Positions 1-33,843 of a stretch of 64,000 nt of DNA are shown here, in pieces. The notes under the pieces were generated by a model, which was not told where the DNA came from, did no database searches, and worked only from the letters and a program-made list of their open reading frames with translations. How positions within the stretch are numbered: the stretch's first letter is position 1; the number at the start of each line of letters is the position of its first letter. Source of the stretch: Amphiscolops sp. MND2022 (Eukaryota); assembly GCA_964187785.1 (NCBI GenBank), contig OZ076413.1, positions 38,254,001 through 38,318,000 on the forward strand. Direction: 5' to 3'. The position numbers and the translations under genes are program-made.

Positions 1-83
1 ATTGGCTACCACTTTGCGGTAAGTCGGTTCCGCTAGGGTCTCATCTGCCATCACGAAGTGCAGTATGGAAAGGGTGGGGGTAT

Positions 84-3011
84 TCACTGCCATGCGCAAG
101 ACCTGAGTGGGTACCTTAGAGCCATGACCGCGCCAAAGATTGGCCAGACTATTGGGGCAATTAGGGGCATCAAGTCCTCTGTTTCTACCAGCATAAGGGT
201 TGCCATTTGTGAAGGAAACAGGAAGACAGGGAGCTGGTTTGGTTCTCTGTTAATGGCTGGGTTCTCATCGAGAGGATGCATGATACCCGCGACATTCACC
301 CATGTTGAGTAAATCCATGCTAGAGTAGCTTCGATGTTTAGTTCCAGTTGTCTTTTTAATCGTAGAGGACCCGCTGGGTCCAAGGCGTTCAAGATTGCTT
401 GTAACCAGTTCTTTTGGTTTTGGGAGAATACCAAGTAGCTGAAGAGTGGTAGATGTCCCTTGTCGAAGATTAGTTTTTGCAGAATCCCAGAGGGTCCTTT
501 ATACACTGTGTGCATTCCGACCGCCATTAAGTAAGCTAGAATTTCACTAATGGTGGCTTTTTGCATTGCCTCCTGGTATAACCGCGTCTGTTGATCATCA
601 AGATTAAATTCGGCTTGAACAAAACTCGGGAGCCAAAAGGGGGAAATGTTATAAAGAAACACAGGAAATGGGATTTCTAGTCGCAGGGCGACTTGATTTA
701 AGGTTTCATGTAGCGCTTTGTGCCAAGTTTGATAGGTATGGCTTGGTTCTACTTCATTTTGTCTTGCTAAGCTTCTTGTCATTACTGTCAAGAGCGTCAA
801 AGTGAGAGACGCCATATCAAGTTTAGCATCAGTAGATATTGCCGCCATGGGAAATACGGTGGTGTTGGTGCGTTCTGTTTTAACTTTTTCAGTTTCTTTA
901 AAAAGAGTTAGGAGCTCTTTGTGGAATTTTGGTTCATGTGTTTTTTCGTCGAGAGTGGACTCATCCTTTCTTTCAAACCAGAGGTTATCGATTAGGTGTT
1001 TTCTCTCGTTCTCGTTCGGGTCGAACACTTTGCGTACACCGTTTTCGTCTAGGGATCGGATAGACATCTGCATTCCGTAGTCGTACGCGGTTGCTTCGTC
1101 GACCATCAATTGTGAATTGCCTCGAAATCCTGTGAATGCCTGGATGGCTTTGGACACCTCTGCCAAAAAGGCTGGATACGACGCCTCGCAGGGGCGCCAC
1201 GTGGTTACGCTAATTCTTAAATTTGGAGCAACAATGTAGAAGTGGAGGTCTCTTGCATAAGCTGCTTCAAGCACTAAATATAAAAATTGTTGCAGTGCTC
1301 TTGGGAGATAAATGTACCCGGGGGGTGAGACGAAGACTGTTGCGGTGTTCGGTTTTTTGTTTTTCATTGTAGTAACAATGTAGGACATTGTTTCTATGTA
1401 GGCCGTGACTTCGTCGGTGACGAAGCCTTCGGTAAATCGATTGCTTTGTGTATCGAAATGTCGCAATGATCCTCGCAGGGCGAGGTGATCAATCACCTTC
1501 GAATACACCAAGACTGGTGGAAGAGGTATCGTTTCTGTCCCCGCTGGCGTGAATATTTTGTCTGTTACCTCTGCCATTTCATTGAGCGTTGTGCAAGGCA
1601 TATTCATTAGTCTAACGTCCATCAAGGTGTTATTGCTATTATACGATGACTTGATGGTTGAGTCAACGAAGAGAGCAATCCTAGTTTTCTGTAGCAAATC
1701 TTTTCCCATTGGTAGTAGGGTGATGGGGTTCCTCGCGTAGTTTTTTGACTGTAGGTGGTTCTCTCCGAATCTGCCGGGTCTCTGGCGAGCGAGTCGATCG
1801 TTGGTTGTTTGGAGCGGTTGTAAGTACGTGGAGTTGCTGTTCTGCAATTCTCTCCTGAGACGCTCGAACCATGGTGGGACTCCTCCATCATTGGCGAATA
1901 TTGGTGGCTTGACTGGTCGGTTGTAAACTACTCCAATGTTGGCCTTCTCTATAGTTCGCTGAGTGGTTTGGTCCCCTCTGCTGTTAGCGCTCGCAAATTT
2001 CTGTCTTGGGGGATTTTCTTCGTCAGGCATATTTGGTATTTCGCGTTGAAGACGCAGTGCGTCTCTCGCTGTAATATCCAACTGTTTCATTTCTGCCGCA
2101 GTTAGTAACTCTCTCGTGACTTTTTGTCTCCTGGCTTCTGGTTGGCTAGGGGACTGGGCTGGAGTTCCTCTGTTTGAGTTGGTTTGCCCGTCTTGCTCTC
2201 TAGCTCTCTTCATTGCATTTAACTTATCGCGGAGATCTATTGGAGCATTTCTATCCTTTCTTTCTTTCTTTTGCTCTTCTTTTTGCCGTTCATGTAGTTT
2301 TGGATCCTTTTGGAATCCTATTAGTTTGCTGGGTTCACTTTTGGCAGGTTGAGGGTTGGAGGTGGAAGGAGTTAATTCTTCGTATGAGTCTTGAAATGTG
2401 ACTTTTCTCGTTGGGCGAGTGTTGTTGGCTTCTTCTTGTGTCACTTGATTGCATTCGATGGGATTTGCTTTCACTCCTTGCACCCCTCCCCCCTGAAAGG
2501 CAGAAGGAAGCATAAAGGCAGGAGTAGAGAGAGTGGGAGGGTTGATGCCCACAGATGCCAGAGGCATAGGTGGTGTGAGGATTGGAGGTAGCATTTGAGG
2601 CAAAGTGCAGTTGAAGGTTGTAGTCTCGGGGGGTGGAAGCTGTATCATAGTTTGAGATGGGGCAGGCTGTGTTGGGTGGAAGATTGGCTGTATTGTTGGG
2701 CGAGAAATTCTGAACGATCGTTCTTGGTCCATAGGAGGCCTGTCCGGTTCTCCGTAGAGCATATGGGAGCGATGGTCGATCAGGTTATGAGTTAAATCGT
2801 AACCATGCCAAACATCATCGCGGAAGGTAGCGGAACGCTCAAGCGGTCCAATGCTACTTGTAATGGTCAATAAGACCTCTGGGTGCGTAGCTTGCGCTTG
2901 CATCTGCGCTACAATCATGGCAAAGCCAGTGATCATGGTGGGGGTGGCCCCATCTTGTAAAGCTTGCTGGACTAAGGCTAGTTGGTCGACTCGGCCATTA
3001 ACCTCGCCCAT
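84..3011 (-). CDS. Accessory ORF3 of the giant Gypsy (975 aa as read): P/T/Q-rich and basic N-terminus, SGNH-hydrolase-like central domain (~1135-1685), hydrophobic helical C-terminal domain
   Basis: Long open ORF starting at ATG. Motif order IALFVDS / VRLMNMPC / VLVYSKVID / TVFVSPP / RPCEASYPAFLAEVSKAI follows SGNH blocks by eye. Homology to the decayed copy at 25-39 kb supports coding status. Confidence 0.8.
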   Translation of the reverse strand: MGEVNGRVDQLALVQQALQDGATPTMITGFAMIVAQMQAQATHPEVLLTITSSIGPLERSATFRDDVWHGYDLTHNLIDHRSHMLYGEPDRPPMDQERSFRISRPTIQPIFHPTQPAPSQTMIQLPPPETTTFNCTLPQMLPPILTPPMPLASVGINPPTLSTPAFMLPSAFQGGGVQGVKANPIECNQVTQEEANNTRPTRKVTFQDSYEELTPSTSNPQPAKSEPSKLIGFQKDPKLHERQKEEQKKERKDRNAPIDLRDKLNAMKRAREQDGQTNSNRGTPAQSPSQPEARRQKVTRELLTAAEMKQLDITARDALRLQREIPNMPDEENPPRQKFASANSRGDQTTQRTIEKANIGVVYNRPVKPPIFANDGGVPPWFERLRRELQNSNSTYLQPLQTTNDRLARQRPGRFGENHLQSKNYARNPITLLPMGKDLLQKTRIALFVDSTIKSSYNSNNTLMDVRLMNMPCTTLNEMAEVTDKIFTPAGTETIPLPPVLVYSKVIDHLALRGSLRHFDTQSNRFTEGFVTDEVTAYIETMSYIVTTMKNKKPNTATVFVSPPGYIYLPRALQQFLYLVLEAAYARDLHFYIVAPNLRISVTTWRPCEASYPAFLAEVSKAIQAFTGFRGNSQLMVDEATAYDYGMQMSIRSLDENGVRKVFDPNENERKHLIDNLWFERKDESTLDEKTHEPKFHKELLTLFKETEKVKTERTNTTVFPMAAISTDAKLDMASLTLTLLTVMTRSLARQNEVEPSHTYQTWHKALHETLNQVALRLEIPFPVFLYNISPFWLPSFVQAEFNLDDQQTRLYQEAMQKATISEILAYLMAVGMHTVYKGPSGILQKLIFDKGHLPLFSYLVFSQNQKNWLQAILNALDPAGPLRLKRQLELNIEATLAWIYSTWVNVAGIMHPLDENPAINREPNQLPVFLFPSQMATLMLVETEDLMPLIAPIVWPIFGAVMALRYPLRSCAWQ

Positions 3012-3475
3012 TGATTGGAGAGTGTTAGAAGAAGGAATACGAGATTAGGGATTCTGTTGGCTATTGGGAGCAGGCATGCGATTACGCGATGAAGGATCCA
3101 TTGATAGCACAGATAGGGAATAAGTGGATATGGATGAAAGAGGGTGATGGTGTGATATAGGGAGGCTGCGCAAGGGCGAAGCAACAGGACAAAACTGAAA
3201 ATCAAGTGGCACATGAACAGGGTATATTAGAAGTGGTAAGAAAGGAAAACTAAAAGTTAAAACTTAAAATGACAGAGTGAGTGTTAAAAAGTTTAGTAGT
3301 TAGGTAGAGTGCAGTCGTTTAAAAAAAAGAAGACCTCTTACGGACTATTTTGTACGTATTAAGGAAGTTAACGAGAAAAATGGGGGTGGATTTTAGAAAA
3401 CAAAAAAAAGGAGGGCGGGCCTCTGGCCCTTTAAATCATGAAAACTCAATCTGTGGGGATGTCAAATGAAGAAAT

Positions 3476-4446
3476 TTATGCAATAGAAACGTAGACTCTA
3501 TCGTGGAGTACTATCTCAAGATTTGACCCGAAGAAGTGATCCCGGAGCGTGGCGTACCAAGTTGGAAGGAGATTGATCGATCGTTCGGGGTCATAGATGG
3601 GTATGTGGACTCGGGAAATTTGGTGTTGGTGGAGTTGATGCCGAAGGTGGTTGAGGCATGCGTGTAGGGTCTCATGTAGTAGTGGGTATTTGGTGGAGGC
3701 CGGGTGTATAGGAGGAAGATTTGATTGTACCAGGGTGCCGTGTGGGAGTACTGTAAGCAAGTGGCTGTGCCAACAGAAGGTTTTAGACGGAAGATAGTTT
3801 CTTGTCCATATTCGCGAATAATATATCGAATAGTTGCTGATTGGGATTGGAGGTCTGCAGGACAGCACAATACTAATGTGCCAGAGGCTTGCAGGATATC
3901 CGTGTCGGAGTAAGTTATCCATGACACGTGGCTTGGGCGAATCTTTGGTTGTGAGATGAGCCATTTTCCAGTTTCTTCTGCGTGATTCTCCGGGGGGTTC
4001 AACATCAAGTGTGCGAAAATTGATTTGCGATCGTTCCATATTGTACGACGTAGGGGGCGGTTGCCCATATGTACGCACGACCATCTGTGCATTACGGAGA
4101 GTGCTTCCAAGGGAGAAATAGGTATTTCGGGCGTGTACGTTAAGCGGTCGAGAATGCAAATTTTCGTTTGTCTGCAGAAAACAATGGCTATTAATTGTAG
4201 CCAATGTTGGCTCAAGAATTTGCCGCGGTAAATGTCAGCTAGATGAAAACATAAGGTGTCGTTCGACTCTACGAGGGTGCGTAGGTTTTCTAGGCTTAAC
4301 AATAATGTAGTTGGTGAGACTAATGATAAGTCGTCAAGGGAAGTGACTAGAAGCCACCATCCAGTGGATGGTTGATATACATCACCTGGTGGGGAAGTGA
4401 TGTGATATTTCTGCCATAGTTGGTTTGCGGTTATGCAGCGGATCAT
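3476..4446 (-). pseudogene. Accessory ORF2 of the giant Gypsy (~323 aa if repaired) with a C-terminal TARG1/OARD1/Poa1p-like macrodomain (~3495-3925); one frameshift near 3700-3704
   Basis: Joining ORF 3511..4446 (to IFLLYTR) to the frame of ORF 3476..4204 (ASTKYPLLHETLH...NLEIVLHD) gives ITYSDTDIL...LVLCCPADL...VG...IFLLYTR...LHACLNHL...ISRVHIP...FFGSNLEIVL. This is collinear with the OARD1 pattern. Confidence 0.72.
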
Positions 4447-4469
4447 TAGGGGGTTACTGTGGGTATTAT

Positions 4470-7154
4470 CTAATTCACCAAATGAAAACGAGGGGGTAGA
4501 GGGGAAATGATTGCTGCTAGCGTGAATTCAAGTCCACCTTTTTCATGAGAAGTCCACTCTTTGAAACGATAGGTTGGGCAATCAGAGGGGGAGAATCGGT
4601 GCATTTCCTTCAGGGTGGATTCCAAGGGTGGTATGGATTCAGATTCGGTACTGGTAAAAGTTTTTTCGATTGTTAAAATGATATGTCGGACGGTTGGTGT
4701 GATATTGGAATTATGTAATTTTGTTCGTACATTGAGGATTTTGTGTTGTGGGTGGTTCGCTGTTTGTGCTAAGAGGAACTCGCAGTCCGGAATCGCCGCT
4801 CCCCGGGCCAGTCGCTGTCTTGGGGTTTCTGTTGTGACTAGCTGGACGCAACTACAGTTACGAGAACCACAGGTTCCGCACTTATATTCCGGTGCTCTGT
4901 TGGTTCGGAGTTGGTAGCGTGGCGCTTGTCTAGAATTATCATCACGTTGGGGTGAATGAGCAGGGGATGAACTCTCTGGAATATGAGGAAGAGTCATGGC
5001 TCTGTCAAGCGTTCTGGGCGCGGTTCTAGAAGAAAATCTGGTTCTTGGGCCTCTCCTGTGCCGCGTGGTGGGTTTCCGGGAAGACGTGGTGGTTTTGCTT
5101 GATGATGTGGGTAGTTGGTTTCGGCAAGCAGGGGGTCTACCTCGAGGTCGACCTCTCCTTGTGGTGGTTGTAGGCGGTGGATTTGGATTCGCGATATGGT
5201 GGTCAGGTCCGTCATTGTTTTCCAGTGGCTCAGTGGCCTGAATTGGATCAGTCGGTTCGTTGGGGTGCGTTGTTTGTTGGTTAAACAAAGGAAAGTTGCT
5301 CAAGGTGTCTGTGAGCGAGGGGTTGGAGAGTAATGGAGCTGAAGTTCCTGAAGGTGATGGTATTAAACTTTCGATGAGCGTTGGTGGCAGTATTTCATCT
5401 TGGTCGGAAAATAATGGTTCTAGATCATGGACTTCGGGGAATACTACTTGGGAGGGAGGGGTCATGGGGGAAGGTTCTGCCGCTTCGGCTTCGGAGTCTG
5501 ATTCGGATGGGTAGTCGAATTGGCTGAATCTCCTGCGTGGGACCCCTTGTCCTAGGGCAGTTCGTGTTCGTGTTTGGATGGTACGAGGGGGGACCGGTGT
5601 CGTGGGTTCCATTTCGAACGACGCCTCTGGGAGCTGTTCTGGAAGAAAGGAGTCTCTAGAGATGTCGGAGGTGATTTCTTCGTTGGTGTCTTCCACGTAT
5701 GGATCAGCAATGATAGCTACATTTTGATCTAGTCCGAATGGTTGGTAAGTGGTCCAGTCCCAGGGGGCTGGTACATGTTTCTTTAGTCTTTCGTAGTGAA
5801 CTTTTTGACCTGTGTCGAGCACGTAGAGACGTCCATCTTGTAGTACATTGGTGACCTTGTGGGGTCCGCGCCAAGCGCGTATAAGCTTGCGAGTGCCGCC
5901 TTTGGGGATTATGTGACAAAATCCCCAGACAGCATCGCCTACGGCGTGCGCTTTTGCTTTGAGGTGACGATCAATTTTTAGTTTTTGTCGAAGTTGAGCT
6001 TGATGTGTATTTCTTCGAACTAATTCGTGGATTTCTTGTTGTCTGGCCAACAGGTGTTCAACAAACTCTTCTTTGGAATCAAAGCCTCGCGCTGCGAACT
6101 CTGGGTATATGAACGAGAGTGGTATCGATTTCTCTGCGCCATGATGGAGCATGGAGGGTGAGAACCCTGTAGTGGCATGTCTGGTGGAATTGTATGCGCC
6201 CAGAACTCCATCAATGTGTTCGTCCCAGTCTTGCATTCTGCGTGAGGTGTAGACTCGGAGGAGAGTGAGCAAAGTTCGATTCTGGCGCTCAACGAGTCCA
6301 TTTCCTCTGGGATGTGCTGGGGTAGACGTAACTTTGGTGACTTGAGAGGCTTTCATTAATTCCTGGGCGATTTCAGCGGTAAAGTTAGTTGGATTATCCG
6401 ATTGCATCCTTGCAGGAGTGCCATGCCTGGCAAACCATTTGTTCAGGATTATTTTTGCCGTGGTTTGTGCGTCATATTCGTTGTGAGCGCAGGGGACAGC
6501 TTCTGCAAATTTGGTAAAATGATCTTATATTACTAAGAGACCGGTGTTGCCCGAGTCGGTCTTGCAGAGTTTCAAATGATCGAACTGAACTAGGTCGTTG
6601 AAATTGCTACTATTAATGCTCTGCAGGGGGTAGCAAGGATTTCCCGCTGGGTGTTTTGCTTGTTGGCAAGTCAAGCATTGCTTGATGTGATTTACTACGT
6701 CCCTCTTGATTCCCGGCCAAGTGGGTCGTTCTTGTATTCATGCCAGCACTTTTCCTACGCCTTGATGTCCCGATTCATCGTGTGCTCTGTACAGGATTTC
6801 GTGTTGGAAAAGTTGCGGCATGACTATCATGCATGGGCGTACGTGCAGGGCACGTTGCTGGGGAACGTAATTGACACAGAGTATGTCATCAGGGTTCAAG
6901 AATAGCAGGTCTTTCTTTTGATGGTAGTATCGTTTGGCGAAGTCTTGTACTTCATCTGGGAACATAGGTTCTTCTAATGGCTCATTTCTCATGAGTTTCT
7001 TTAGTGCCAATAGGTGTACGTCTCTGTTCTGCGCCATGTGTAGGTCTCGGAGGCCATATTTGGTTAGATGGTGTTCGTGCAATTCGGTTTCAATGGTTCT
7101 CAGAATGTCAGCTTGTTTTTGACATTCGAGAGGCAGAGTCCCTAGGGTCGGGTC
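4470..7154 (-). pseudogene. pol: Giant Gypsy pol, 3' part: connection region, integrase and ~450-aa C-terminal tail
   Basis: ORFs 6738..7181 and 4470..6407 share one frame, interrupted by TGA (6738-6740) and TAA (6525-6527). Motifs are HDESGHQG...CLTCQ, VQFDH, QSDN, GNGLVER, W-GP; the tail carries RRGRPRGRPP. Confidence 0.93.
7027..7154. repeat. 128-bp host-element segment duplicated on both sides of the nested insertion (other copy 13117-13244)
   Basis: ttctgcgccatgtg...cctagggtc(g/a)ggtc is present at both positions with one substitution (7150 vs 13240). Confidence 0.95.
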
Positions 7155-7373
7155 TGAGACACAAGCATCGACATGTGTCAATCCAAAAAGTGTCTACGAT
7201 AAACCTTGGCGAACGATGTGACACAAAACTACCTGCCAATGATCTTATGTTCTGAAGTCATGTACTTACAAGATAGATACACATACGATGATAATGTACA
7301 GTTGCTTGATACAGTCTATGTTACTTTGAGTCATTCCATTTTAATTCACTCTTTGAACTTTTTCTGACTTACA
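7155..7373 (+). repeat. 5' LTR of the nested Gypsy (219 bp)
   Basis: TGAGAC...TTACA; matches 12879-13097 apart from one G/T difference (aaaaagtgtct vs aaaaagtttct). Confidence 0.97.
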
Positions 7374-7386
7374 TGGCGCAGTCAGC
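7374..7386 (+). promoter_or_regulatory. Primer-binding site, tRNA-Ser-like
   Basis: TGGCGCAGTCAGC directly after the LTR; resembles the TGGCGCAGTC tRNA-Ser PBS of several Gypsy elements. Confidence 0.8.
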
Positions 7387-7401
7387 AATCTGATCAAAAC
7401 A

Positions 7402-10400
7402 ATGGATAACAACAACACCAATCCGAGCCTAAATGAAGGTGAGCCGAATATATCGGAACGATCATCCAGAACAAACAACACTACAACATCGTCAGAACGG
7501 ATGGAGAAAACCAAATACAAAATTCCCATACTATCAGACAGGGAAACAGACCTCACCAAAATCAATCCTAAAATGTGGTGGGAGCAGATTTCGAAATACA
7601 TCCATTTGACATATAACCGAAATCTAGAAGAAATTACCGATGAAGGGACAGAATACATGGATCCCCACACAGTCTACCACATTAAAGGTGATGTTATCTG
7701 GGCACTTGGCCCAAAGGCCAAGCATGAAATCATGAGAGGCCAATGGGGCCGTGAACTGAAAGAAGTGAATCTTCCCGAATTACTAACCCTATTCAAGAAA
7801 ACTTTCCTCCCTGCAAGAAATGTTTTTCATAGCCGGGCACAGTTCTTTAACATGAAGCAAGAAGATAACGAAACACTCGATGAATACTGGAAGAGACTCG
7901 TTGACATCGAGAGAAAGTCCGACTTCGGCAACATCACAGCAGAGGAAATTATTACATACAAATTTGCATCAACAATAAAAGACAAAAAAGCCCGTGATAA
8001 ATTCATAAGAGGCCCCCTGAAATTACAACTCGTTCTCGACACGATAGAACTCGATAATTACAACCGAAAGTACGGGGATAAGAGGCCGAAAAGCAAAAAA
8101 GCCCGGAAAGATTCATCAAACAGCTCAACATCCACCGAACTGATCGGTCATACCAACCAGCCACGGAAACGCAAAACAAATTTTACCGAAAAGAAAAAAT
8201 TTTCAAACCGGGATTGCCGCTTTTGCGGAAAACCAAACTGGTCAATGGAACATATTTGCCCGGCACGGAAGGCCCAATGCAACAATTGTAAAAAGGTGGG
8301 ACATTTTGCCAAAGTATGCAAATCCAAGACCGTCAGCCGGATAAAAGAAATGGTTTCATCGGACAGCAGTACCGAACCATGGCCGGAAATTGATCACATT
8401 CAGTCCGTCAACGGTGTGAACCGTATCGACTTTTACAAAGCAATCCTATTGGTCCACGGCCAACCAATAGAATTCATCATTGATACAGGCTCACCCGTGA
8501 CCATCATACCTCCAATTATCACACCAAAAGACATAAAGAAAACGACAAAAACTTTTGTTGACGTGAATAAAAACCCCATCAAATTCAAAAGCGAGGCGAT
8601 GGTCGAAGTGAAAACGGAAAAAAGTAAACAGACACTACCTATCCTGATCACAGAGAACAAAAACACGCAACCACTGTTGGGATTAGACTGGCTGGACAAA
8701 TTGGAAATTGGATTACAAGGCAGCAAAAAGACAAATGTGATCCGCTATGTGGAAGAAGACGATAGACGAAAAAAAATTATCAGCGAACACGAAGACTTAT
8801 TCAAAAATAACCACACCATAAAAGACCTAACGATTGACATCCAGCTGAAGGAAGATGTAAAGCCCATACAACAAAAGGGACGACCAGTTCCCATACACTT
8901 TCAAAAAAATGTCCGAGATGAACTAGAGAAACTTATCAAATCGGGACACATCGAGAAAGCGGATGAAACCACAGAAATTTGCTTCATTTCCCCCGCCGTC
9001 ATTACCATCAAAAAGGACAAGTCGGTCAAAATTGCTCTGGATTCAAGAAAACTCAACGAGGCATGCATAAAGCGAAAAACAGCAATGCCAAACATGGAGG
9101 AATTAATCAGCAAAATCTCCGCTAAAATAACTAACGGCGAAGGCGAAATCTGGATGTCTAAGATAGACCTAGATTACGCCTATGGTCAGGCAAAATTGGC
9201 AAAAGAAGCAGCCAAACACTGTGTATTTTCAATTATTGGCGGAGACTTCACTGGTCATTATCGCTTCAAGAAAGGTTTTTATGGACTATCCGACATTCCA
9301 ACGGTATTCCAGGAACACATCGACAAGGTGCTAGAATTCAAAACCCCCGTCTGGCTAGATGACATCATCTGCGTGACGAATGGAAGCATTGATGATCATG
9401 AAAAAGAATTACGAGAAGTCCTAAAGAAATTGCAAAACGCCGGATACCGAGCCAGTGAAAAGAAAACGGAATTGTTCAAAAAAGAACTAACCTGGCTCGG
9501 CTACTTTATTAATCAGAATGGCGTAAAACCAATCAAGGACAAGACGGAGGCGATCACGAAATTAGCCGCACCGAAAAACGCGAAGGAGTTAAAATCCTTC
9601 CTTGGATCGATACAACACTTGTCCAAATTCATCAATAATTTGTCAAAGAAAACCGACCGAATGAGAAGATTACTCAAAAAGGATGTCAAATGGGAGTTGA
9701 CAGCAGAAATAGACGATGATTTTGAACAATTGAAGAAAGAAATTACGGAAGCCCCGTGTTTGGCCCACTTCGACCCAAAAAGGGATAACTATATCACAAC
9801 AGACGCTTGCAACACTGGACTGGGAGCGACCCTGTGGCAGAAGGAAGGTATAGTATTCAGGCCCATAGCTTTTGCCAGCAGATTTTTAACTGATTGCGAA
9901 AGAAAATACGCAATAAATGAACTAGAGCTTTTGGGAGCCTTATGGGGATTAGAGCACTTCCGATATTACGTTTACGGTAAAAGAGTTAATTTGCTAACAG
10001 ACCACCAGGCACTACAACCGTTACTGAAAAAGAATCGGGCACATAAACAATATAGCGCACGGTTGACTCGTTGGCTGGATAGATTGAGCCATTTCGATGT
10101 TAATATTCAATACACGGCCGGCAAAAACATTCCACTTACGGATTACTTAAGCCGTCATCCGATCGTACCGACCGAAATTGCCGAATTAGAAAACAAAGCG
10201 GACGGACAAAACGAAGCGGAAGCCGACGAAGAGTTGGTCGTTAACCAAATATACGTTCTGTTTGAATTCAATCGAGAGCGAGGAAGCATAAAGCGATTCA
10301 CCGAACAACTGAACGCGAGAGAAAATTCCGACCAATCACAGCGCGACAAAATTTCATGCGAACAGAACTCAAACACTCACTTGCTTAAAACTTCACCGCC

Positions 10401-12750
10401 GCCAGTTAACATTATCAATCGCGAATCATCAAATTCAAAAATGGACAAAGTCAACGGCATTGACATGAATTTTATCTTCAAGAAAAGGGGCCACTCCCCT
10501 GAAACCAAACGCCTGTGGATCGAGAGAAACCACCTACTAAAGCCGGATCGGACACGAATTGTCGGGAAAGGCAAGGAAAGTGAACGGATACAGGAGTATC
10601 GACCAAATCAGGACAGCAGAAAAAGGATCGCAGAGATCAACATCAAAATCTACAACCGCTTCTTCCGATACTGCGAAACACTCGAGACGACACCCCTGCT
10701 AGAATACCAGCAAAATAACAACGAATCTTGGCTGCAAAATAATCAATCAGATGGAGAAAGCGAGACCAGCCACATTAAACGAGACAAGTGCCCCACAAAT
10801 GTTTTAAAGAAATTCAAGAAGCACGAAACTGTAAACTTGATCCGACTTAAACAGACAGCAATAAAAAACACACTCAGCAGCGATCAAAAGCAAGGCACAG
10901 AAGAAGCCATCAAAAGAGCGGAAAAGGATTTCGCGCTAGATATTCCACTGCTTGTCGACGAAACAGCACGAGATATAAAAATGCTCAATGCAATCGCGGC
11001 CATCGAAAACCAACAACCGGATAGTATTTTCTATCCCTATCGCCCACACCGGTCACATCTGTCCACGAGATTTGGCCTACTGTTCTACAACGACAAGATA
11101 GTGATTCCGGAGAACATGCAGACAACGGTGATAGCCATGTTACATCACGGACATATATCGGCGGGAAAAATGGAAAAAGTAGCCGAAGCCTTCTGGTGGC
11201 CAGGAATGAACCGCGAAATCCACGAGAAAGCCGAATCCTGCCCAAGCTGTAGAGCCGCAGGTAAGAATCTTGTTACTCAAATTCCGTCCACGGAGAAAAA
11301 CAATTTAGATCTTTTAACGGAACCCAATCAAGAAATCCAATTGGATTTCGCCGGTCCAATCAAATCAAAAACACGCGGCGACGTATATATTTTAGTAGCA
11401 ATTGACCGTTTTAGCAAGTGGCCGACCGCACATATTTGCAAAAGCGCGGACACACGGACCGTCAAAAAATTTTTAACTAAATATTTTACGGACAACGGGA
11501 TACCACGGGTTATTCGAACCGATAACGGTAGCTGCTTTAAAAGCATCGAATTCAAACAATTCTGTAAAGATCAAAATATTAAACGTATACGGTGCACTCC
11601 AAACTTACATACCGGCACCGGTCTGGTCGAACGAACTATCCGGTCGATTAAATCACTTACACGAGCAAACATGGCAGACGGCTTAACCTTTGAAGATAGT
11701 GTCCAATTGGCGATAAGAACAATTAGACAAACGCCACACAGCAAATTGAAAATGACACCCTTCCAAATGCACTTAGGTAGAAAACCGCGCACCGCTCTGA
11801 TCAATTTAATAGACAAGCCGGAATGTCTACTCTCTAATTGGAAGAGAACGCTGACCAATTACGTTTTAGCCCAAACAACAGAACTACAGGTCGTCACTAT
11901 CAATGATGCAGGAGGAGAACTGGCCGACTACCTCGTGCTAAACGAATCAAAGAAAAAAGGACGTTCGGTAAGCCGGGATTTTAAAAACTACCAATTTTTT
12001 GAGAAGGAGAATAAACCGAATTCCATGAAATGTGGTTTTAAAACAAATAAGGTTTTAACAGCGGTAGCAGAAACAGGGCATACGGTAACTACCTCCGAAG
12101 GGAGGATAATACACAAAAAATTGGCATCAAAACCCCTGAAATTTCAGACATCACGAAAACCTGAAGAACAAAGACGGCCAACCAATAGATGCCGCAGATG
12201 CGGAAAATTCAGCAGTGGCGAATGGTGTGAGACGCACTTACGTCTCGAGGCGGCCAGGCAGGACAGTAACAACAACGAACCCAGTACCAGTCATACCACA
12301 ATTCCGACCATGCCGTCAAAGAAGCGACCATACAGCCGCGTGGTACTGTACGACTCCTTCAGCAACGATTCGGGACCGACAAATAATCAAGCCGATACGA
12401 CCACCTCAGAAGAGGAAGACACCGACGACATCACACTCAAGGACATGATCGGCCGAGAAGTCGAACGCATACGGTCGGAAACACCGATGCCGTCCTCCCC
12501 AATCGGCTGTAGCAAGGAGCTGATCCCGCCCGAAGATACAACACAACCGGACACATCCGGAACGCCAATCCGCAACCAAAGTACTTCCGGCATAGAGACC
12601 GCACCTCAGGATGTCACAGGTAAAATATGGCTAAAACAAAATGCTAACGGGGAAAATAACCCACTAGATTTAACCATAGAACCACGCAGATCCGAAAGGA
12701 TAAAAACTGCAAAAAGAATAGTTAAACTGGGCGGTGTTGAATATTTTTAA
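7402..12750 (+). CDS. gag-pol: Gag-Pol polyprotein, 1782 aa (two Zn knuckles, PR, RT, RNase H, extended linker, IN)
   Basis: CRFCGK...HIC and CNNCKKVGHFAKVC knuckles; IIDTGS; KIDLDYAY; WLDD; TTDAC; HHGH...CPSC; LDFAGP, RTDNG, GLVER. No internal stops. Confidence 0.97.
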   Translation: MDNNNTNPSLNEGEPNISERSSRTNNTTTSSERMEKTKYKIPILSDRETDLTKINPKMWWEQISKYIHLTYNRNLEEITDEGTEYMDPHTVYHIKGDVIWALGPKAKHEIMRGQWGRELKEVNLPELLTLFKKTFLPARNVFHSRAQFFNMKQEDNETLDEYWKRLVDIERKSDFGNITAEEIITYKFASTIKDKKARDKFIRGPLKLQLVLDTIELDNYNRKYGDKRPKSKKARKDSSNSSTSTELIGHTNQPRKRKTNFTEKKKFSNRDCRFCGKPNWSMEHICPARKAQCNNCKKVGHFAKVCKSKTVSRIKEMVSSDSSTEPWPEIDHIQSVNGVNRIDFYKAILLVHGQPIEFIIDTGSPVTIIPPIITPKDIKKTTKTFVDVNKNPIKFKSEAMVEVKTEKSKQTLPILITENKNTQPLLGLDWLDKLEIGLQGSKKTNVIRYVEEDDRRKKIISEHEDLFKNNHTIKDLTIDIQLKEDVKPIQQKGRPVPIHFQKNVRDELEKLIKSGHIEKADETTEICFISPAVITIKKDKSVKIALDSRKLNEACIKRKTAMPNMEELISKISAKITNGEGEIWMSKIDLDYAYGQAKLAKEAAKHCVFSIIGGDFTGHYRFKKGFYGLSDIPTVFQEHIDKVLEFKTPVWLDDIICVTNGSIDDHEKELREVLKKLQNAGYRASEKKTELFKKELTWLGYFINQNGVKPIKDKTEAITKLAAPKNAKELKSFLGSIQHLSKFINNLSKKTDRMRRLLKKDVKWELTAEIDDDFEQLKKEITEAPCLAHFDPKRDNYITTDACNTGLGATLWQKEGIVFRPIAFASRFLTDCERKYAINELELLGALWGLEHFRYYVYGKRVNLLTDHQALQPLLKKNRAHKQYSARLTRWLDRLSHFDVNIQYTAGKNIPLTDYLSRHPIVPTEIAELENKADGQNEAEADEELVVNQIYVLFEFNRERGSIKRFTEQLNARENSDQSQRDKISCEQNSNTHLLKTSPPPVNIINRESSNSKMDKVNGIDMNFIFKKRGHSPETKRLWIERNHLLKPDRTRIVGKGKESERIQEYRPNQDSRKRIAEINIKIYNRFFRYCETLETTPLLEYQQNNNESWLQNNQSDGESETSHIKRDKCPTNVLKKFKKHETVNLIRLKQTAIKNTLSSDQKQGTEEAIKRAEKDFALDIPLLVDETARDIKMLNAIAAIENQQPDSIFYPYRPHRSHLSTRFGLLFYNDKIVIPENMQTTVIAMLHHGHISAGKMEKVAEAFWWPGMNREIHEKAESCPSCRAAGKNLVTQIPSTEKNNLDLLTEPNQEIQLDFAGPIKSKTRGDVYILVAIDRFSKWPTAHICKSADTRTVKKFLTKYFTDNGIPRVIRTDNGSCFKSIEFKQFCKDQNIKRIRCTPNLHTGTGLVERTIRSIKSLTRANMADGLTFEDSVQLAIRTIRQTPHSKLKMTPFQMHLGRKPRTALINLIDKPECLLSNWKRTLTNYVLAQTTELQVVTINDAGGELADYLVLNESKKKGRSVSRDFKNYQFFEKENKPNSMKCGFKTNKVLTAVAETGHTVTTSEGRIIHKKLASKPLKFQTSRKPEEQRRPTNRCRRCGKFSSGEWCETHLRLEAARQDSNNNEPSTSHTTIPTMPSKKRPYSRVVLYDSFSNDSGPTNNQADTTTSEEEDTDDITLKDMIGREVERIRSETPMPSSPIGCSKELIPPEDTTQPDTSGTPIRNQSTSGIETAPQDVTGKIWLKQNANGENNPLDLTIEPRRSERIKTAKRIVKLGGVEYF

Positions 12751-12867
12751 CAGTGATCCATTTAGGAACTGAGTATACATTCACCACTCCGAGGAGATAC
12801 CCAATTACTCCTTTTCCCCGAATCAAGAACTACCCCCCTCAGCACGACTGGTTTCCCTGAACGCCAC

Positions 12868-12878
12868 GGAGGAGGGAA
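12868..12878 (+). promoter_or_regulatory. Polypurine tract of the nested Gypsy
   Basis: GGAGGAGGGAA immediately before the 3' LTR. Confidence 0.85.
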
Positions 12879-13097
12879 TGAGACACAAGCATCGACATGT
12901 GTCAATCCAAAAAGTTTCTACGATAAACCTTGGCGAACGATGTGACACAAAACTACCTGCCAATGATCTTATGTTCTGAAGTCATGTACTTACAAGATAG
13001 ATACACATACGATGATAATGTACAGTTGCTTGATACAGTCTATGTTACTTTGAGTCATTCCATTTTAATTCACTCTTTGAACTTTTTCTGACTTACA
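12879..13097 (+). repeat. 3' LTR of the nested Gypsy (219 bp)
   Basis: Direct repeat of 7155-7373. Confidence 0.97.
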
Positions 13098-13116
13098 TTC
13101 GAGAGGCATGTGTACG

Positions 13117-16100
13117 TTCTGCGCCATGTGTAGGTCTCGGAGGCCATATTTGGTTAGATGGTGTTCGTGCAATTCGGTTTCAATGGTTCTCAGAATGTCA
13201 GCTTGTTTTTGACATTCGAGAGGCAGAGTCCCTAGGGTCAGGTCAGGCTTTGTTGTGTCTATTCGTGCCGGAGGCACTCTTGTGGTTATGCTCAAGATTC
13301 GATTGGGTCGCTCATCCTCTTCCATAGTCGGTGTGGTTTCCCATTGAATTTCGGGATACCAGGGGATATCTCCTGTTGGTTCGTTAGGCTGATTGTTCTT
13401 TCGCTTCTTATGAAGGATGTATAGCAGAGGTAGTCGAGCTTTTGCTTCTGGGGGGAGTTCAGGGTGGTCTGGGATTAGGTGACCACGTTTGTCGATGTAT
13501 GGGACGGTGGGGAGTTCATCATAGTCTTTTTGTGACATGAAGTTAAATCCTTCGCTTACCTCTGGTAGCTTTTCAAGGATTTGTTCGCGAATAATGTAAT
13601 CGTTGGTGCGTTTGCTTAGTCCATCGACATTTCGGTGTTGCGTACGCGGTCTGTGAATTGTTTTGAAATGATATTGGTCTAGACGTGCGATCCAACGGCC
13701 AATCATGGCTTGGTCCATGGAGTAGGTTTTGAGCCATGAAAGAGCTTGGTTGTCTACGCGAAGCGTAAACTCTCGACCTGCTAGGTATGAGTGGAATTTC
13801 TCTACAAAGTAAAATACTGCATACATCTCCAGTTTGGGGGCGCCGTAGTTCAATTGGGTTTTGGTCAGTGATTTACTACCGTAAACTATTGGTCTCAGGA
13901 TAGTTTTGCCGTTGTTTTCTTGTTCTTGATGTAGAATACCCGCGATAGCTACCGTGCTGGCGTCTGTATCTAGCACGAACCGTCCTTGTTCGTTTGGTGC
14001 AGCCAAGGTGGTGGCATTGGACAAGGCTTGTTTCACTGAGTCGAAGGCTTCTTGATGTCTTTCCTCCCAGCAGAAGTGTTGATTCTTCTTTAGCAATTCC
14101 TGCATGGGTTGCACTTTGGAGGCGTGGAATGGGACAAAATCGCGATAGTAGTTAGCAAACCCTAAGAAGCTTTGGAGTTCTTCTTTGTTTCTTGGTGGCA
14201 ACCACTCTTGGATTTTGGTCACTGCTTCTGGGTCGGGCTTGATTCCATCGGCTGATACTATCCGTCCCAGATATTTGGTTTCTGTGAGCATGAAGTCGCA
14301 TTTTTCCGCTCGCATCTTAAAGCCTGCCTCCCTGAGACATTCAAATACTTCTTTAATCCTCATTATGTGGTCTTCAATTGTTTCAGTTGCAATCACTATG
14401 TCGTCGATGTAGGCCATGACGACACTTCCGTGTCTTTGTTGGATTTTTTGAAGTGCTTTTGTGATGGATCGTTGGAAGGTGGCGGATGCATTGCATAGCA
14501 CGAAGGGCATACGTCGCCATTCAAACAAACCCAATTCACAGGCAAATGCTGTTTTCCTTCTGTCGCGTTTCTTCAGTGGTATTTGCCAAAAGGCCCATGC
14601 TAGGTCGATGCTTGTGAAGATTTTTGCGTTACCTATCCTAGACAGACTTTCGTCTATTCTGGGAAGGGGGAAGGCGTCTTTTACTGTTACGTCATTTAGC
14701 GGTCTAAAGTCGCAACAGAAGCGAAGTTCACCTGTCTTCTTCTTCACCATTACTATTCCACTAGCCCAAGGCGAGTAGGAAGGTTGGATCGAGCCTAATG
14801 CTAAGAGGTTCCTCACTTCTTGGTTGGCTTTGGCGGCCTTGTCTGGTGACATTCGCCTTGCGCCCTCCCTGTGGGGGATAGCTTCTGATTCCAATTCAAT
14901 ACGATGTTTTGCTATTGTACACTTCCCTATGTCGGCCTTATGTTTCATAAAGAGGTCGTCGTACTCGTTTAAGACTTCTGCTAATTGATCTCTCGCTCCC
15001 TCTCCCCAAAAAGAAAGGCCGGAGGACAGATCTGGGCCTGGTATCGGTTTCAATAGGTTCGGGTCTGTTTGCGCGCGTTTTTCATTTTCCGAGATATCCT
15101 CTTCGGACAACTCAGTATATGATAAAAAGTTTTGTGCGAAAGAACTGAATTCACTGCTTGTATCGTCAAGATCAACAATATTAATATTATTAACTTGTTC
15201 TATCAGAGGCATAGAGGTTCTATCGGTTTGGTCGACCGGAATCGGTCTAAACTTAAAAACGGTAGGCTCTGCCTTGCCTAGGAGAGTTCGACTAGGAATT
15301 TGTAAGTTTTCAATGGCGGTTTTGTTTCTTACGGCCAAGTATATCGTGCCATCGTCTCCCACCGAAGTTAGGGTGTCTTCTGAAACAAAGGAACTTCGGT
15401 TGTACACCCCGCTGGGGCGTATCATTACATTACGGAAACGATATTCATTGGGATCTTGAGTGATGACTTGTGCTCTAACTAACTTGCGTTCGAAAGGTCC
15501 TAGTACAACTTTGTCGGTGGACACTACTAAGGAAGGTTCATGGTCACTAACCTCATGGATTGGTTTGAAATGGCGTGGAGTTTTTGGGTCCCTGATGGTG
15601 ACCCTCATGGCGGTCAAGTCCACGAGGACATTATAGGTGCGTAAGAAGTTGCGTCCTAACAGGAAGTCTTCAGCCCCTAAGTGATCAGCAATGACGATGA
15701 AGTTAGTCTTCAATGAGTGGCCGCCCAATTGGAAATTCACGTTTTCTGCCATGCCGACCGTCGTTATTGTTTTGCCGTTTGCTGCGTATAAGTGGATGTC
15801 GTATGGCATGAGGCTCAACGAATGGGCGGAAGCAATCTTTTGGTACGCTGCAAGGGAGAGGATAGAAACACCAGAACCCGTGTCAATCATACCATACAAG
15901 GGAATGGACTCTTGGAGGTTGTTGCCAAAGGCAACTACCAAAGAAGCTCGTTCGTCGATGCTAGCTTCCCCTTGAGTGTCTTGTACTCCAATGTTATAAC
16001 ACCTCAACTCCTGGCGACCTAAGTATAATCCCTGAGGGAAGTAACCTTCTACCACTACGATAGCGTCAAATTTCATGTCGACCCCGTCTACATTAATGGC

Positions 16101-24503: not shown

Positions 24504-25175
24504 GTAAGTCAGCATTAAGGACTTAGTTTGAAACGTTCTGCTTTCAAAGATGATAGAAAGTCCTTTGTATATTTTTTCTATGGATGTGAAGTCAGTCCGT
24601 GAGGTTTAGACATTTCCGGGTTTCTCTTGGACGCCTGAACTAGACCTTTTTAAATCCGATAAATTTTACAAGATTTTCACTAAAATGCGCCGAAACAGTT
24701 ATCAGTTCATACACAATTTTCTCATCAACTTAAAATTAATTTAGTCGCGATAAAAATATAGATGTCAAATTTTGTCGAGGTGTATAGATTTGCTGAGTGG
24801 TGTATACTACTCAGTTTTCGAAACTTTCATAACACCCCCGGGTTGCCAACCCAGAGAAAGATGTTGCTCAGACCTGACCCCAGACTGATAAATGTCTGCA
24901 AACTAGGTTTTGCAGTGATCACTCGAGACTCTGCTCCGCTCCGGCAGCTACAGAACTAATGTAACATTCCTCCACCATGAAGCAACCGATATGTAACTGC
25001 CGTAGTTAGAGTAGAAGAGCTTGTCCACGGTAGATTCGTTGACTGGTATACGTTCAGTATTGGTTTTACACGGTAAGCTATCAAATACGCTCGAACTTTT
25101 CAGCAATGGTTGTTCAGATTTGCAAAGTACATTTTTCAGGTCTCTTGGGGCACCGTACCAGTTTACTAGGCTGGG

Positions 25176-25717
25176 CTACTGAGGTAGGTGACATGCTTTC
25201 TTGGTGCACTTATGCAACACTGCGAGAAGATTTTCTACCTGATGTAGAGCGGTCTTTATCGTAGCGTATTTCTTGGTCACAGCTATTGGCAACACTTCCG
25301 TAATCATCTCTTCATAACGAATAGGTTGCACTTGTTGCAGGTATGTGCAAATGAACGTAGTCTGGACCCGTACGGACAAAGGTTTCTTGGGTATCGTAAA
25401 AAGCTGATTGTGCTGAAGATTGGTGCTAGCACGGGTGCTAGCTCAGTGACCATGTCTTCAACTTCGGCTAACGTCATGTCGGCTAACTGCTGCGGCATGA
25501 GGAATACAGCCGTTACCCAAGGGAATTCCTTAGGACTACACACGGCCCACTCCAAAGATCAGTCCGAGACCAAGAGCACCCAGTGTTGGAGGGAGGCCCT
25601 CGCTCTGAAAACCTGGAAAGTGTAATCTTGGGCGTCAGGAATTGGAGCTGCCATTGAGCAAACACTAAAATGTATATAAATCTGAGATTCTGTCAGCCTG
25701 TGTCAACTCAGTCACCG
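25176..25717 (-). pseudogene. Decayed, diverged homolog of giant-Gypsy ORF3: C-terminal segment
   Basis: VFLMPQQLADMTLAEVEDMVTELAPVLAPIFSTISFLRYP aligns without gaps to ORF3 VFLFPSQMATLMLVETEDLMPLIAPIVWPIFGAVMALRYP. Confidence 0.85.
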
Positions 25718-26516
25718 CCCAGTGACACGAATCTTGGCACGCTTGCCAAGATGCATGGGTATGCTTGCCAAGATCTTGGCAAGATCTTGCCAAGATCTTA
25801 CCAAGGCTACCATGATCATGCAAGATCATGGCAAGGCTGACCATGCGTCTTACCAAGCGTACCAAGATTTTCCATGTATCTTACCAAGCTTTTCCATGTG
25901 TCTTGCCAAGCATACCAAGATTTTTCTATCCATCTTGCCAATCCAACCAGGATTTTTTCATGCGTTTTGCAAAGCATTCCAAGATTCAGTAATTAGAACC
26001 CGTTACCTCAATAGATCAGGTAATAGCATGATTTGCATAATTTTAAACAAATCATCGCTAGAAAAGTTGGTTTTCACACCGATATCGCAAACCCGCAAGT
26101 TGCAATAACTTGATTCGGAGTTTGCTTGGTATGATAAGTCATGTTAGTAGTAACAATGCCGTGCTCTCAAGTAACAAAACTCGGTCAATAGGTGCAGCGA
26201 ATTATTGAGCAAATTTTGGATAATTTTCAATTAAAAACTATTTTCAATCAATAAATATTATGTCCAAAGTTATTACAATGGCTAATTCAAAAATTGCAGA
26301 CGACAAAGAATTTTTGCGAAAAGAATAAATTATGCACAATTAATACCAGCTTACATGTCTTACCATGGTTATCTTGTCAAGATCTTGCCATGATCTTGCC
26401 ATGATCTTGGCAAGCGTTCCATGCATCATGTTTTTCCATGCGTCTTGGTAAGCCTACCATGCGTTTCCATGTTTTTCCAAGATCTTGGCAAGGCTACCAA
26501 GATTCGTGTCACTGGG
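25718..26516. mobile_element. Non-autonomous EnSpm/CMC-like DNA transposon (799 bp)
   Basis: 20-bp TIR CCCAGTGACACGAATCTTGG, 2-bp TSD (CG), and subterminal arrays of CAAGATCTTG motifs. Confidence 0.88.
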
Positions 26517-26866
26517 CGTCACTAGCGGTCCAACTACACATCTCTGCTGCCCAATAGCGAGGACGATTGCTAAAGCTTCGATCACAGTCATGTCAACGAA
26601 AGTATCCGTAAATTCAACAGTTTGATCATCGCTCAAAGTAACCGACCATCTGAGGACAAGACGGGTGACAATTGAGGATATGGGTATGGACAGCCTTCAA
26701 GCTACGTCTTTCATGGTCTTGGTACGGAACTAGCCGTACCACAGCCCATAAGATATGTTGCACGTGCTCACTTCCTCTGTCAACTCTAGGGTCTCTTGTG
26801 TCACAATAGCACGCTTTTCCAAAGACAACTGGATAATTCCGTATATCTTGCAAAACGGACATTGAG
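26517..26866 (-). pseudogene. Decayed ORF3 homolog: segment between the EnSpm-like element and the BEL element (copy at 44044-44393)
   Basis: LSDDQTVEFTDTFVDMTVIEALAIVLAIG...GP versus ORF3 LDDQQTRLYQEAMQKATISEILAYLMAVG...GP. Confidence 0.82.
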
Positions 26867-26871
26867 AATGG

Positions 26872-27118
26872 TGTTCACGCTAATATGACCTGAATGAACT
26901 TCATATTAAATACTACTTGAGTTTCTTCATGTATGACTTTCTAATTACTCTATGCCACGTTGCTTAACATGCTTGACTTCAATGAATAACCAATCATATT
27001 GCAATACGTAATTGTTCATGTGGCTTCTCATTCACTCATTTGTTTAGCGAGTCAAAGAAAACGTTTGGACTTGATTCAAACTTTCAATTTCTCTTTTTGC
27101 CACAATCGGCTCACAACA
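26872..27118 (+). repeat. BEL 5' LTR, copy 1
   Basis: TGTTC...CAACA; differs from 33592-33838 at five positions by my count. Confidence 0.96.
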
Positions 27119-27186
27119 CTTTTTGGTGCCGCGACCCGGGAAGCATTCTCGGAAATTCTTCAGCAGCTCTCTCGAACGACCAATTC

Positions 27187-33838: not shown

Positions 33839-33843
33839 AATGG

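Follow-up and report, generated by a model that had tools for sequence, protein, structure and literature searches.

Does the third ORF of this Gypsy element, behind the pol gene, encode an SGNH hydrolase, and if its catalytic residues are gone, what might the domain be kept for? We analysed a window of 64 kb (the whole stretch of DNA under study), for which a sequence-only reading had proposed that an accessory Gypsy ORF carries an SGNH-hydrolase-like domain lacking the catalytic His.

The Gypsy element and its third ORF

Pfam matches on the window ORFs give the gene order gag, then PR-RT-RH-IN, which defines Ty3/Gypsy elements. ORF3 is the third ORF, downstream of pol, i.e. in the env position. 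The features that we use below are the following.

1-3101 (-): ORF3 pseudogene, whole, continuing past the window end
1128-1688 (-): SGNH/GDSL-fold core, aa 453-639 of P0001 (AlphaFold model and structural alignments)
1736-1116 (-): structural match wider than the core, aa 437-643, with the N-terminal helices common to PAF-AH-like SGNH proteins
1656-1664 (-): block I, D461-S462-T463, with S462 at the putative nucleophile position (conservation and end-anchored register)
1593-1595 (-): block II, position 484, putative oxyanion Gly site (mapped from motif spacing)
1485-1499 (-): block III, N-x-x-D-H in the family (conservation; DSSP of the model)
1191-1196 (-): block V, R617-P618, with Arg at the putative catalytic-His position (conservation and register)
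3102-3475 (-): non-coding spacer between pol and ORF3, sense strand pyrimidine-rich (sequence)
3476-4503 (-): Pol C-terminal extension (P0370 and P0392), with two frame breaks here and in frame in intact relatives
4485-7172 (-): integrase part of the host pol (Pfam rve; 94.5% to P0370)
16829-13065 (-): PR-RT-RH part of pol (Pfam RVT_1, RT_RNaseH, aspartyl protease)
18794-16830 (-): gag (Pfam zf-CCHC among the window-ORF matches)
25131-38508 (-): decayed ORF3 of another subfamily, in a second element (family-profile matches)
35140-33955 (-): SGNH part of the decayed ORF3 (family profile)
39148-39059 (-): Pol C-terminal remnant, before the decayed ORF3
41105-40701 (-): integrase remnant, before the decayed ORF3

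The SGNH domain lies in P0001 (3044-84 on the minus strand, 986 aa from stop to stop), which also holds the motifs FVDS, SKVID and WRP where the sequence-only reading had placed them. The window copy is a pseudogene: a stop (3047-3045) comes soon after its ATG at 3101, and the frame is broken near 111-105. ORF3 reaches ~1,140-1,440 aa in long relatives and consists of a conserved N-terminal domain of ~90 aa, a low-complexity linker of ~300 aa, the SGNH domain, a helical domain and a hydrophobic stretch at aa 958-976.

That ORF3 belongs to the element, as had been claimed, is supported by several observations. It is intronless and on the element's strand, there are chimeras joining RT to ORF3 (P0025) and IN to ORF3 (P0127), and the order IN, Pol tail, ORF3 recurs in the second element. 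P0392 is collinear with the host pol across a nested insertion. From its sequence, the spacer upstream of ORF3 may possibly hold a splice acceptor or an internal promoter. The Pol C-terminal extension matches an ESM Atlas cluster at 0.88, of which 15% is PF01661; Pfam, PDB sequences and PHROGs give no macrodomain support. We treat a macrodomain-like tail as a lead only.

The decayed homologue that had been noted at 33.8-35.2 kb is real and keeps VDS (~35041-35033), but it belongs to this second element. The family profile matches 35140-35015 at E 6e-9, plus three pieces reaching 33955, in an ORF3 split by a BEL element (26872-33838, 5-bp TSD) and by inverted-repeat insertions. Because 26145-43672 is duplicated at 99.7%, the decayed homologue is also found at ~52.7-51.5 kb.

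The SGNH fold and its altered catalytic site

The AlphaFold model of the domain (pLDDT 84.4, pTM 0.84) was compared with 48,161 chains by VIA-align, and 59 of them had Z of at least 8. The best matches were GDSL/SGNH proteins, with Z 8.5-11.9 over 145-190 residues at 7-17% identity, including the GDSL lipase 3p94 (Z 11.9, rmsd 3.8, 177 aligned), PAF-AH 1bwp (Z 11.7) and TesA (1IVN; Z 10.9, rmsd 3.0, 155 aligned). Foldseek with the same model gave a best E of 6e-4. PAF-acetylhydrolase Ib alpha and the bacterial GDSL_2 lipases (1BWP, 3P94, 1IVN) are thus the best structural matches (Z 10.9-12.0), and the N-terminal helices are matched as well in PAF-AH and 3P94; unlike ORF3, these are active cellular enzymes that are not mobile, at 10-14% identity. 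The SGNH-like domain proposed from the sequence is confirmed as a predicted flavodoxin-like SGNH hydrolase-like fold, with five parallel strands in a sheet flanked by helices, the support coming from structure. The outcome that would have refuted the sequence-only reading, a predicted structure of another fold, did not occur.

Sequence searches were silent. Pfam on the window ORFs gave no PF13472 (Lipase_GDSL_2) match for the domain at the curated cut-off of 32.9 bits, and a single member of a 67-sequence alignment matched this profile, below the cut-off (E 0.27). There was no significant SGNH match in PDB sequences, ESM Atlas, PHROGs or NCBIfam, and an hhalign comparison with 55 GDSL_2 proteins from bacteria scored 13.4 (E 0.26), within the range of 20 controls (9.7-16.8). 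Of the suggested comparisons with PF13472, the LINE esterase and OSK, the last two returned structural matches (ZfL2-1 by Foldseek, OSK by VIA-align at Z 8.5) but the first had none by sequence. PPR-repeat matches in the PDB sequence search were rejected as summed sub-threshold repeats. No related loci were found in the JGI metagenomes and IMG/VR.

We then used a family alignment of 135 sequences in eight subfamilies, 20-53% identical, with counts over non-gap rows; most rows are probably copies that share a single genome or come from a few, and five of the eight subfamilies have only one or two sequences. The register was obtained by counting from where each structural alignment begins and ends, on the assumption that it has no gaps. 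The catalytic Ser of the solved chains then falls on S462 (codon 1661-1659, minus strand, as for all codons here) in 7 of 14 and is missed in the other 7, while the catalytic His falls on R617 (1196-1194) in 7 of 14 and within 617-620 in all 14. No His is present at these four positions.

Block I keeps its D-S across the family, as had been seen in the window copy (D in 118 and S in 120 of 122 sequences). The loss of the block V His, also proposed from the sequence, is general: Arg occupies this site in 129 of 134 sequences and in all eight subfamilies, against a single His, and the catalytic-acid site has Asp in only 6 of 135. A block V matrix was built from 55 real SGNH proteins, whose true sites score at least 5.3 bits and mostly above 15 bits; the top three windows of each of ten family proteins contained no His-containing site above 6.5 bits. 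The oxyanion Gly of block II, a site mapped by spacing, is found in 2 of 132 sequences, from one of the eight subfamilies, and is replaced elsewhere by C, L or H; the most divergent subfamily alone retains it, as P-G-S-T. In block III the family pattern is N-[VLFM]-[ILMFV]-D-[HDY], with N in 131/135, D519 (1490-1488) in 132/135 and H520 in 129/134 (six of eight subfamilies), and the helix of the model starts at 517 (DSSP). The description of this block as G-x-N-D altered to SKVID was right in that the block differs, but its Lys (K516, 1499-1497) is private to the dead copy, since K occurs in 2 of 135 sequences and N in 131; the family has N-x-x-D. No subfamily has a majority Asn at 518-520 that could be the oxyanion Asn, in a register uncertain by one or two residues. 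The subfamily of P0360 and P0364 has Asp at 520, yet retains S, N, D and R, and the single Tyr at 520, in a one-member cluster, could be decay.

Judging from conservation and the modelled register, the catalytic His and Asp and the oxyanion Gly and Asn are lost, with Ser retained and Arg conserved at the His site. The loss of the His is a family trait rather than decay, because Ser and Arg are nearly invariant across 135 relatives from eight subfamilies. In four of seven pairwise comparisons the SGNH region was the best conserved region, and it came second in the remaining three. The H282S mutation abolishes hydrolysis by the ZfL2-1 esterase (PMC3905857), and among 30 representative SGNH structures the His is retained in all except OSK (PMC10792757 Table 2). 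The pattern of a kept Ser with His replaced by Arg is absent from the 12 class/group combinations of that survey (PMC10792757).

Binding or catalysis

Because the key catalytic His is replaced by a conserved Arg, the domain probably binds rather than cuts. The explanation that we hold to be probable is the capture of an SGNH esterase fold that lost catalysis early in the history of this Gypsy family, and became a non-catalytic binding or scaffold module. The accessory protein that holds the domain would be large and soluble, with its ORF in the place of env, and is presumably made from its own subgenomic message. Its remodelled pocket, with the S462 hydroxyl and the R617 guanidinium, could grip an anionic group without turnover, be it a phosphate, the carboxylate of an acyl group or an acidic residue on a protein partner. 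In this way ORF3 may couple the RNP or virus-like particle of the element to some site in the cell while it is assembled or transported. In our judgement a protein partner is the leading candidate ligand, itself short of an even chance, a lipid or acyl group comes second and RNA third. By analogy with PAF-AH, we also considered a mimic that would bind LIS1. The near-invariant S462 and the H520 found in 129 of 134 sequences tell against a non-catalytic module, as a rebuilt catalytic site predicts them equally.

One sub-case of this explanation, to which we give a low probability, is that the domain acts like ZfL2-1 in targeting membranes, or like OSK in binding RNA, and provides an env-independent membrane association. 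Liposome binding by ZfL2-1 persists after active-site mutation (PMC3905857), ORF3 is in the env position, OSK is matched at Z 8.5, and all eight proteins scanned have the hydrophobic stretch seen at aa 958-976, with a mean hydropathy of 1.6-2.1. This stretch, however, is not part of the SGNH domain and contains two prolines. OSK ranked 48th, under ordinary bacterial GDSL enzymes, and 4c1b is absent from the top 50 VIA rows. The ZfL2-1 esterase binds liposomes mostly via surface charge (pI 10.8; PMC3905857), and the OSK surface is largely positive or hydrophobic (bioRxiv 2025.05.02.651258). The SGNH domain here has a net charge of -2 to +3 and a pI of 6.1-9.0 in the nine sequences examined, a bulk figure that leaves room for a local basic patch; such near-neutral charge counts against either binding mode. 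Rodriguez et al. do not regard GDSL ORF3s without TM or coiled-coil as env-like (PMC5408684). In the first 700 residues, seven of the eight proteins have no 19-mer above 1.6; the exception, P0038, lacks the start of the protein and has its peak only after the SGNH domain. With no N-terminal hydrophobic 19-mer in this hydropathy scan, a signal peptide is not evident.

It is unlikely, in our view, that ORF3 still works as an enzyme through a rebuilt site, in which S462 would be the nucleophile, activated by H520 or by the substrate, and R617 an oxyanion or phosphate anchor. Such a site would account for the conservation of all four residues (S462 120/122, D519 132/135, H520 129/134, R617 129/134); block III adjoins the Ser in SGNH proteins (PMC10792757), and permuted and chimeric SGNH triads are known. 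Yet P0360 and P0364 dispense with H520 while keeping the other residues, and the helix from 517 would fit N516 as a cap and D519 as a structural Asp, in which case H520 would not occupy the oxyanion position. Retention of the Ser can be explained without catalysis, because D-S-T is also a structural Asx motif. An equally unlikely variant is a new chemistry using the Ser, the Arg at the His position and the Asp-His of block III, by which covalent acyl or phosphoryl capture, or a lipid or nucleotide clamp, would dock the particle on membranes instead of env. If true, it would be a third route for LTR elements within or between cells, beside env and Gag-driven spread.

We consider it very unlikely that a generic flavodoxin-like alpha/beta domain without SGNH ancestry resembles these enzymes by analogy. 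The silence of Pfam, PDB-sequence, Atlas, PHROGs, NCBIfam and hhalign searches, the modest Foldseek E-value and the low identity would fit this idea, but the top VIA rows of all chains scanned are GDSL/SGNH proteins, D-S aligns with G-D-S and R-P with H-P, the most divergent subfamily keeps P-G-S-T in block II, and one alignment member touches Lipase_GDSL_2. Least credible of all is a host gene or independent insertion beside the Gypsy element: no LTRs of the host element were located in the 64-kb window, its 3' end lying beyond, but the clusters of 342, 240, 237 and 172 members, the chimeras, the gene order repeated in a second subfamily and the intronless ORF on the element's strand all speak against it.

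Known relatives and the rest of ORF3

The finding is less surprising because GDSL esterase ORF3s of LTR retrotransposons have already been published, in Vesta of bdelloid rotifers (PMC5408684). By features, Vesta resembles the element here in having an SGNH fold in a third ORF after pol, in env's place. As described there, the ORF3s of Vesta are short (1.3-kb clones) and retain the invariant catalytic residues, whereas the ORF3 here is far longer, comprises several domains, carries Arg in place of the His and goes unrecognised by Pfam. The same source describes the GDSL derivatives of Athena-L, also transposon-borne SGNH-fold ORFs without catalytic residues, but from another retroelement class (Penelope-like elements) and grouped with PC-esterases. 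The ZfL2-1 ORF1p esterase (CR1/L2, RTEX; 4C1B), another accessory protein of a retrotransposon with an SGNH fold, ranked 18th in Foldseek (E 0.011). It differs in being active, with the full S-G-N-D-H set and pI 10.8, in a non-LTR ORF1 upstream of pol (PMC3905857). Of its H191/S228 pair, the family conserves no His in the place of H191, and has Ser at the S228-like site in 126 of 135 sequences but as the majority in only four of the eight subfamilies. Oskar OSK (5A4A; Z 8.5, rmsd 4.1, 157 aligned) is likewise a dead SGNH fold behind a disordered linker, and in the preferred register both have a hydrophobic residue where the oxyanion Asn would be. OSK has Asp for the nucleophile Ser and keeps the block II Gly (G-D-D / S-G-L; PMC10792757 Table 2), in contrast to the family here, which keeps the Ser, has lost the Gly, has Arg at the His site and shows no LOTUS match.

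A disabled, long-conserved form of the esterase in an LTR-element ORF3 was not found in the literature searched. SGNH esterases have been captured repeatedly by several retroelement classes, and the question is whether they bring chemistry or only a binding surface; we favour the latter because the fold was kept through divergence down to 20-35% identity while the catalytic base was discarded. The family offers a natural control for the lipid model of ZfL2-1, of a value limited by its narrow known range. It also illustrates how captured enzyme folds, missed by sequence searches, can lie within the large 'unknown' ORF3s of LTR elements.

The N-terminal domain, for which neither PDB sequences nor Pfam (including LOTUS) gave a match, carries the conserved motif W-x-G-[YH]-D-L-T-H, with D-[LI]-T-H in 52 of 54 matches. 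We rejected this motif as a block V supplied in trans: it falls outside the top three matrix windows in nine of ten proteins and scores -3.6 in the tenth, and it reads D-L-V-E in the most divergent subfamily. For the post-SGNH region (P0026), a structure search returned nothing above Z 4.5 or below E 0.46, which is no evidence for a new fold because the search used the region as a whole. Its model has an overall pLDDT of 55, with residues 101-260 at 66-95.

A third ORF downstream of Gypsy pol

The putative SGNH domain is carried by a 986-codon minus-strand open frame (window 3044-84; conceptual product P0001, whose residue numbers we use). This frame belongs to ORF3, the third ORF downstream of a Gypsy pol. 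The sequence-only reading had placed the domain in a Gypsy accessory ORF, and the order of the element on the minus strand bears this out:

18794-16830 (-), gag
16829-13065 (-), PR-RT-RH
7172-4485 (-), integrase
4503-3476 (-), Pol tail
374-bp spacer between Pol tail and ORF3 (-)
3101 (-), ATG start of ORF3

The window copy of ORF3 is dead (stop at 3047-3045, frame break near 111-105), the host Pol copy has two further breaks, and no LTRs of the host element were found within the window. Two database chimeras have ORF3 fused to RT (P0025, 82% to the window pol) or to integrase (P0127).

Two word-seeded searches returned 35 and 119 relatives, all ENA proteins without names. HMMER, run in full against 1.84 billion representative sequences, yielded 609 matches at E ≤ 0.001, with the best 150 listed. 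Long relatives have about 1,140-1,440 aa. Four clusters are large (342, 240, 237 and 172 members), as a repeated element would give. Relatives occur both on long contigs and on short ones (0.8-14 kb), a hint that several hosts may be involved. The BEL element in the window suggests that the host is an animal.

ORF3 consists of a conserved N-terminal domain of about 90 aa, a low-complexity linker, the SGNH domain and a helical domain; it also has an acidic tail and, internally, a single hydrophobic stretch. The N-terminal domain (about 3000-2730, minus strand) has a W-x-G-[YH]-D-L-T-H motif (52/54 matches) and gave no known match in searches. The region after the SGNH domain (about 830-250, minus strand) contains a predicted all-helical domain (modelled at pLDDT 66-95 in residues 101-260 of the related protein P0026), and a search with the whole region gave no structural match. 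Upstream, the Pol extension (4503-3476, minus strand) adds some 340 aa at the Pol end, in frame with the integrase in the intact relatives P0370 and P0392. By eye we take it to resemble two tandem TARG1/OARD1-type macrodomains; the one tool to support this lead was the Atlas (0.88, cluster with 15% PF01661). The Pol linker between integrase and Pol tail (about 5500-5000, minus strand) contains an Arg-rich RRGRPRGRP stretch, presumably AT-hook-like, and a C-x2-C-x4-C-x-C motif invariant in 14 aligned relatives.

Predicted fold and active-site residues

Sequence methods fail to recognise the domain. It had no match in Pfam, a single PDB sequence match (E 0.21) and no usable match in the ESM Atlas. 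Its profile-profile score against 55 bacterial GDSL_2 proteins (13.4, E 0.26) fell inside the range of 20 reversed or shuffled controls (9.7-16.8), so that the case for SGNH is made by the modelled structure. The AlphaFold2 model of residues 430-700 (alignment of 67 rows) has alternating strands and helices (pLDDT 84.4, pTM 0.84) and matches SGNH proteins, as had been proposed. GDSL/SGNH esterases dominate the Foldseek list, with a best E of only 6e-4 and the ZfL2-1 esterase (4c1b) at rank 18. VIA-align placed 59 of 48,161 chains at Z 8 or more, among them GDSL lipase 3p94 (Z 11.9, rmsd 3.8, 177 aligned), PAF-AH (Z 11.7) and Oskar OSK (Z 8.5, rank 48). TesA gave Z 10.9 (rmsd 3.0, 155 aligned), and a viral library returned mostly SGNH domains.

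The three motifs named from sequence are all present in P0001:

1661-1659 (-), S462 of F-V-D-S
1499-1497 and 1490-1488 (-), K516 and D519 of S-K-V-I-D
1196-1194 (-), R617 of W-R-P

We set the active-site register by counting from the first and last aligned residues only, which assumes gap-free ends; the positions of Ser and His in the reference chains are those tabulated in PMC10792757 (Table 2; 14 chains common to both sets). The catalytic Ser fell on S462 in 7/14 chains, those missing it being mostly chains with long N-terminal extensions. The catalytic His fell on R617 in 7/14 and within 617-620, a stretch without His, in all 14.

Residues were counted in 135 sequences covering at least 170 positions, from 262 of 369 proteins matching the domain profile (127 shorter fragments excluded). 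They form eight subfamilies (63, 49, 15, 2, 2, 2, 1 and 1 members) at 20-53% identity. D461 and S462 (block I, with Ser at the nucleophile position) are found in 118 and 120 of 122 rows, and D-S is the majority in all seven subfamilies covering the block. The block II Gly occurs in just 2/132 rows, and Asp at the block V acid position in 6/135. N516 (131/135, Lys in two), D519 (132/135) and R617 (129/134, His in one) are each the majority residue in 8/8 subfamilies. A block V matrix built from 55 true sites found a comparable His-containing site in none of 10 family proteins; its top window overall (9.2 bits, in the tail of the related protein P0344) is His-less. Since the Arg is conserved and the relatives have no block V His site, loss of the catalytic His, first noted from sequence, is ancestral to the family, and the Arg at its site is under selection. 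In the model a helix starts at residue 517. This fits the earlier mapping of block III (residue 516 at the Gly position, a hydrophobic residue in place of the oxyanion Asn, D519 as the structural Asp), with N516 as a putative helix cap; this register is uncertain because the spacing from the preceding Pro permits a one-residue shift. Conservation, like fold, residue loss and position of the domain, was computed, and in seven pairwise comparisons of ORF3 the SGNH region ranked first in four and second in three.

A putative binding module

Related cases are described in the literature. Rotifer Vesta LTR elements have GDSL ORF3s with intact catalytic residues, and Athena-L has GDSL derivatives lacking them (PMC5408684). 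The ZfL2-1 esterase is active; mutation of its His abolishes hydrolysis, and liposome binding, which depends on surface charge, remains (PMC3905857). For dead SGNH proteins, the same source points to the PAF-AH homologs of insects and to Oskar. Among 30 SGNH structures tabulated in PMC10792757, OSK alone lacks the His, and it lacks the Ser too; its RNA binding is summarised in bioRxiv 2025.05.02.651258. The domain described here belongs to none of the active GDSL, ORF1p-esterase or OSK families, and would work like a dead binding module with an SGNH fold. Full-text searches, covering few subscription journals or Repbase reports, found no title or abstract on a catalytically dead SGNH ORF3 in a Gypsy element.

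The domain is probably a pseudo-esterase, while its ligand, expression and role are inferred. Fold and pocket would be retained and catalysis lost, Ser and Arg would grip an anionic group, whether it belongs to a protein, a lipid or an RNA, and ORF3 would serve as an adaptor for the RNP or particle of the element. The sequence-only interpretation stands in part, for the fold, the His loss and the accessory ORF; its membrane- or RNA-binding version, a sub-case of the pseudo-esterase so that their likelihoods overlap, seems unlikely. The domain is near neutral in 9/9 sequences (net -2 to +3, pI 6.1-9.0), which makes the charge-driven membrane mode of ZfL2-1 and OSK-like RNA binding less likely, though a local patch would still be compatible. 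Slightly less probable again is an enzyme with an active site rebuilt from Ser and His520, a residue found in 129/134 rows and the majority in 6/8 subfamilies; of the other two, one has Asp and the other, with a single member, Tyr.

A second ORF3 and other insertions

The decayed homolog previously noticed at 33.8-35.2 kb is indeed homologous, and is more exactly part of a second, decayed ORF3 (38508 to 25131) from a different subfamily. Remnants of integrase and Pol tail lie ahead of it, arranged as in the host element, and a BEL element flanked by a 5-bp TSD splits it. Insertions in the window include:

26872-33838 (+), BEL/Pao element in the second ORF3, 247-bp LTRs, 5-bp TSD
25718-25986, 26373-26516, 35194-35397 and 37333-37601, short MITE-like inverted-repeat elements in the decayed ORF3
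7155-13098 (+), nested Gypsy splitting the host pol, 220-bp LTRs (99.5% identity)

The BEL/Pao element carries an antisense 237-aa frame (33625-32912) with a T-x-W-H-F-D motif, which we take to look JmjC/cupin-like; it had no Pfam match. CTTGCCAAG-type units are abundant among the MITE-like elements. The nested Gypsy is flanked by a duplication of about 130 bp of host pol (7026-7154 and 13116-13244, 99%), with no simple short TSD. A segment of 17.5 kb occurs twice, head to tail (26145-43672 and 43672-61206, 99.7% identity); either it was recently duplicated in tandem or the second copy is an artefact of the assembly.
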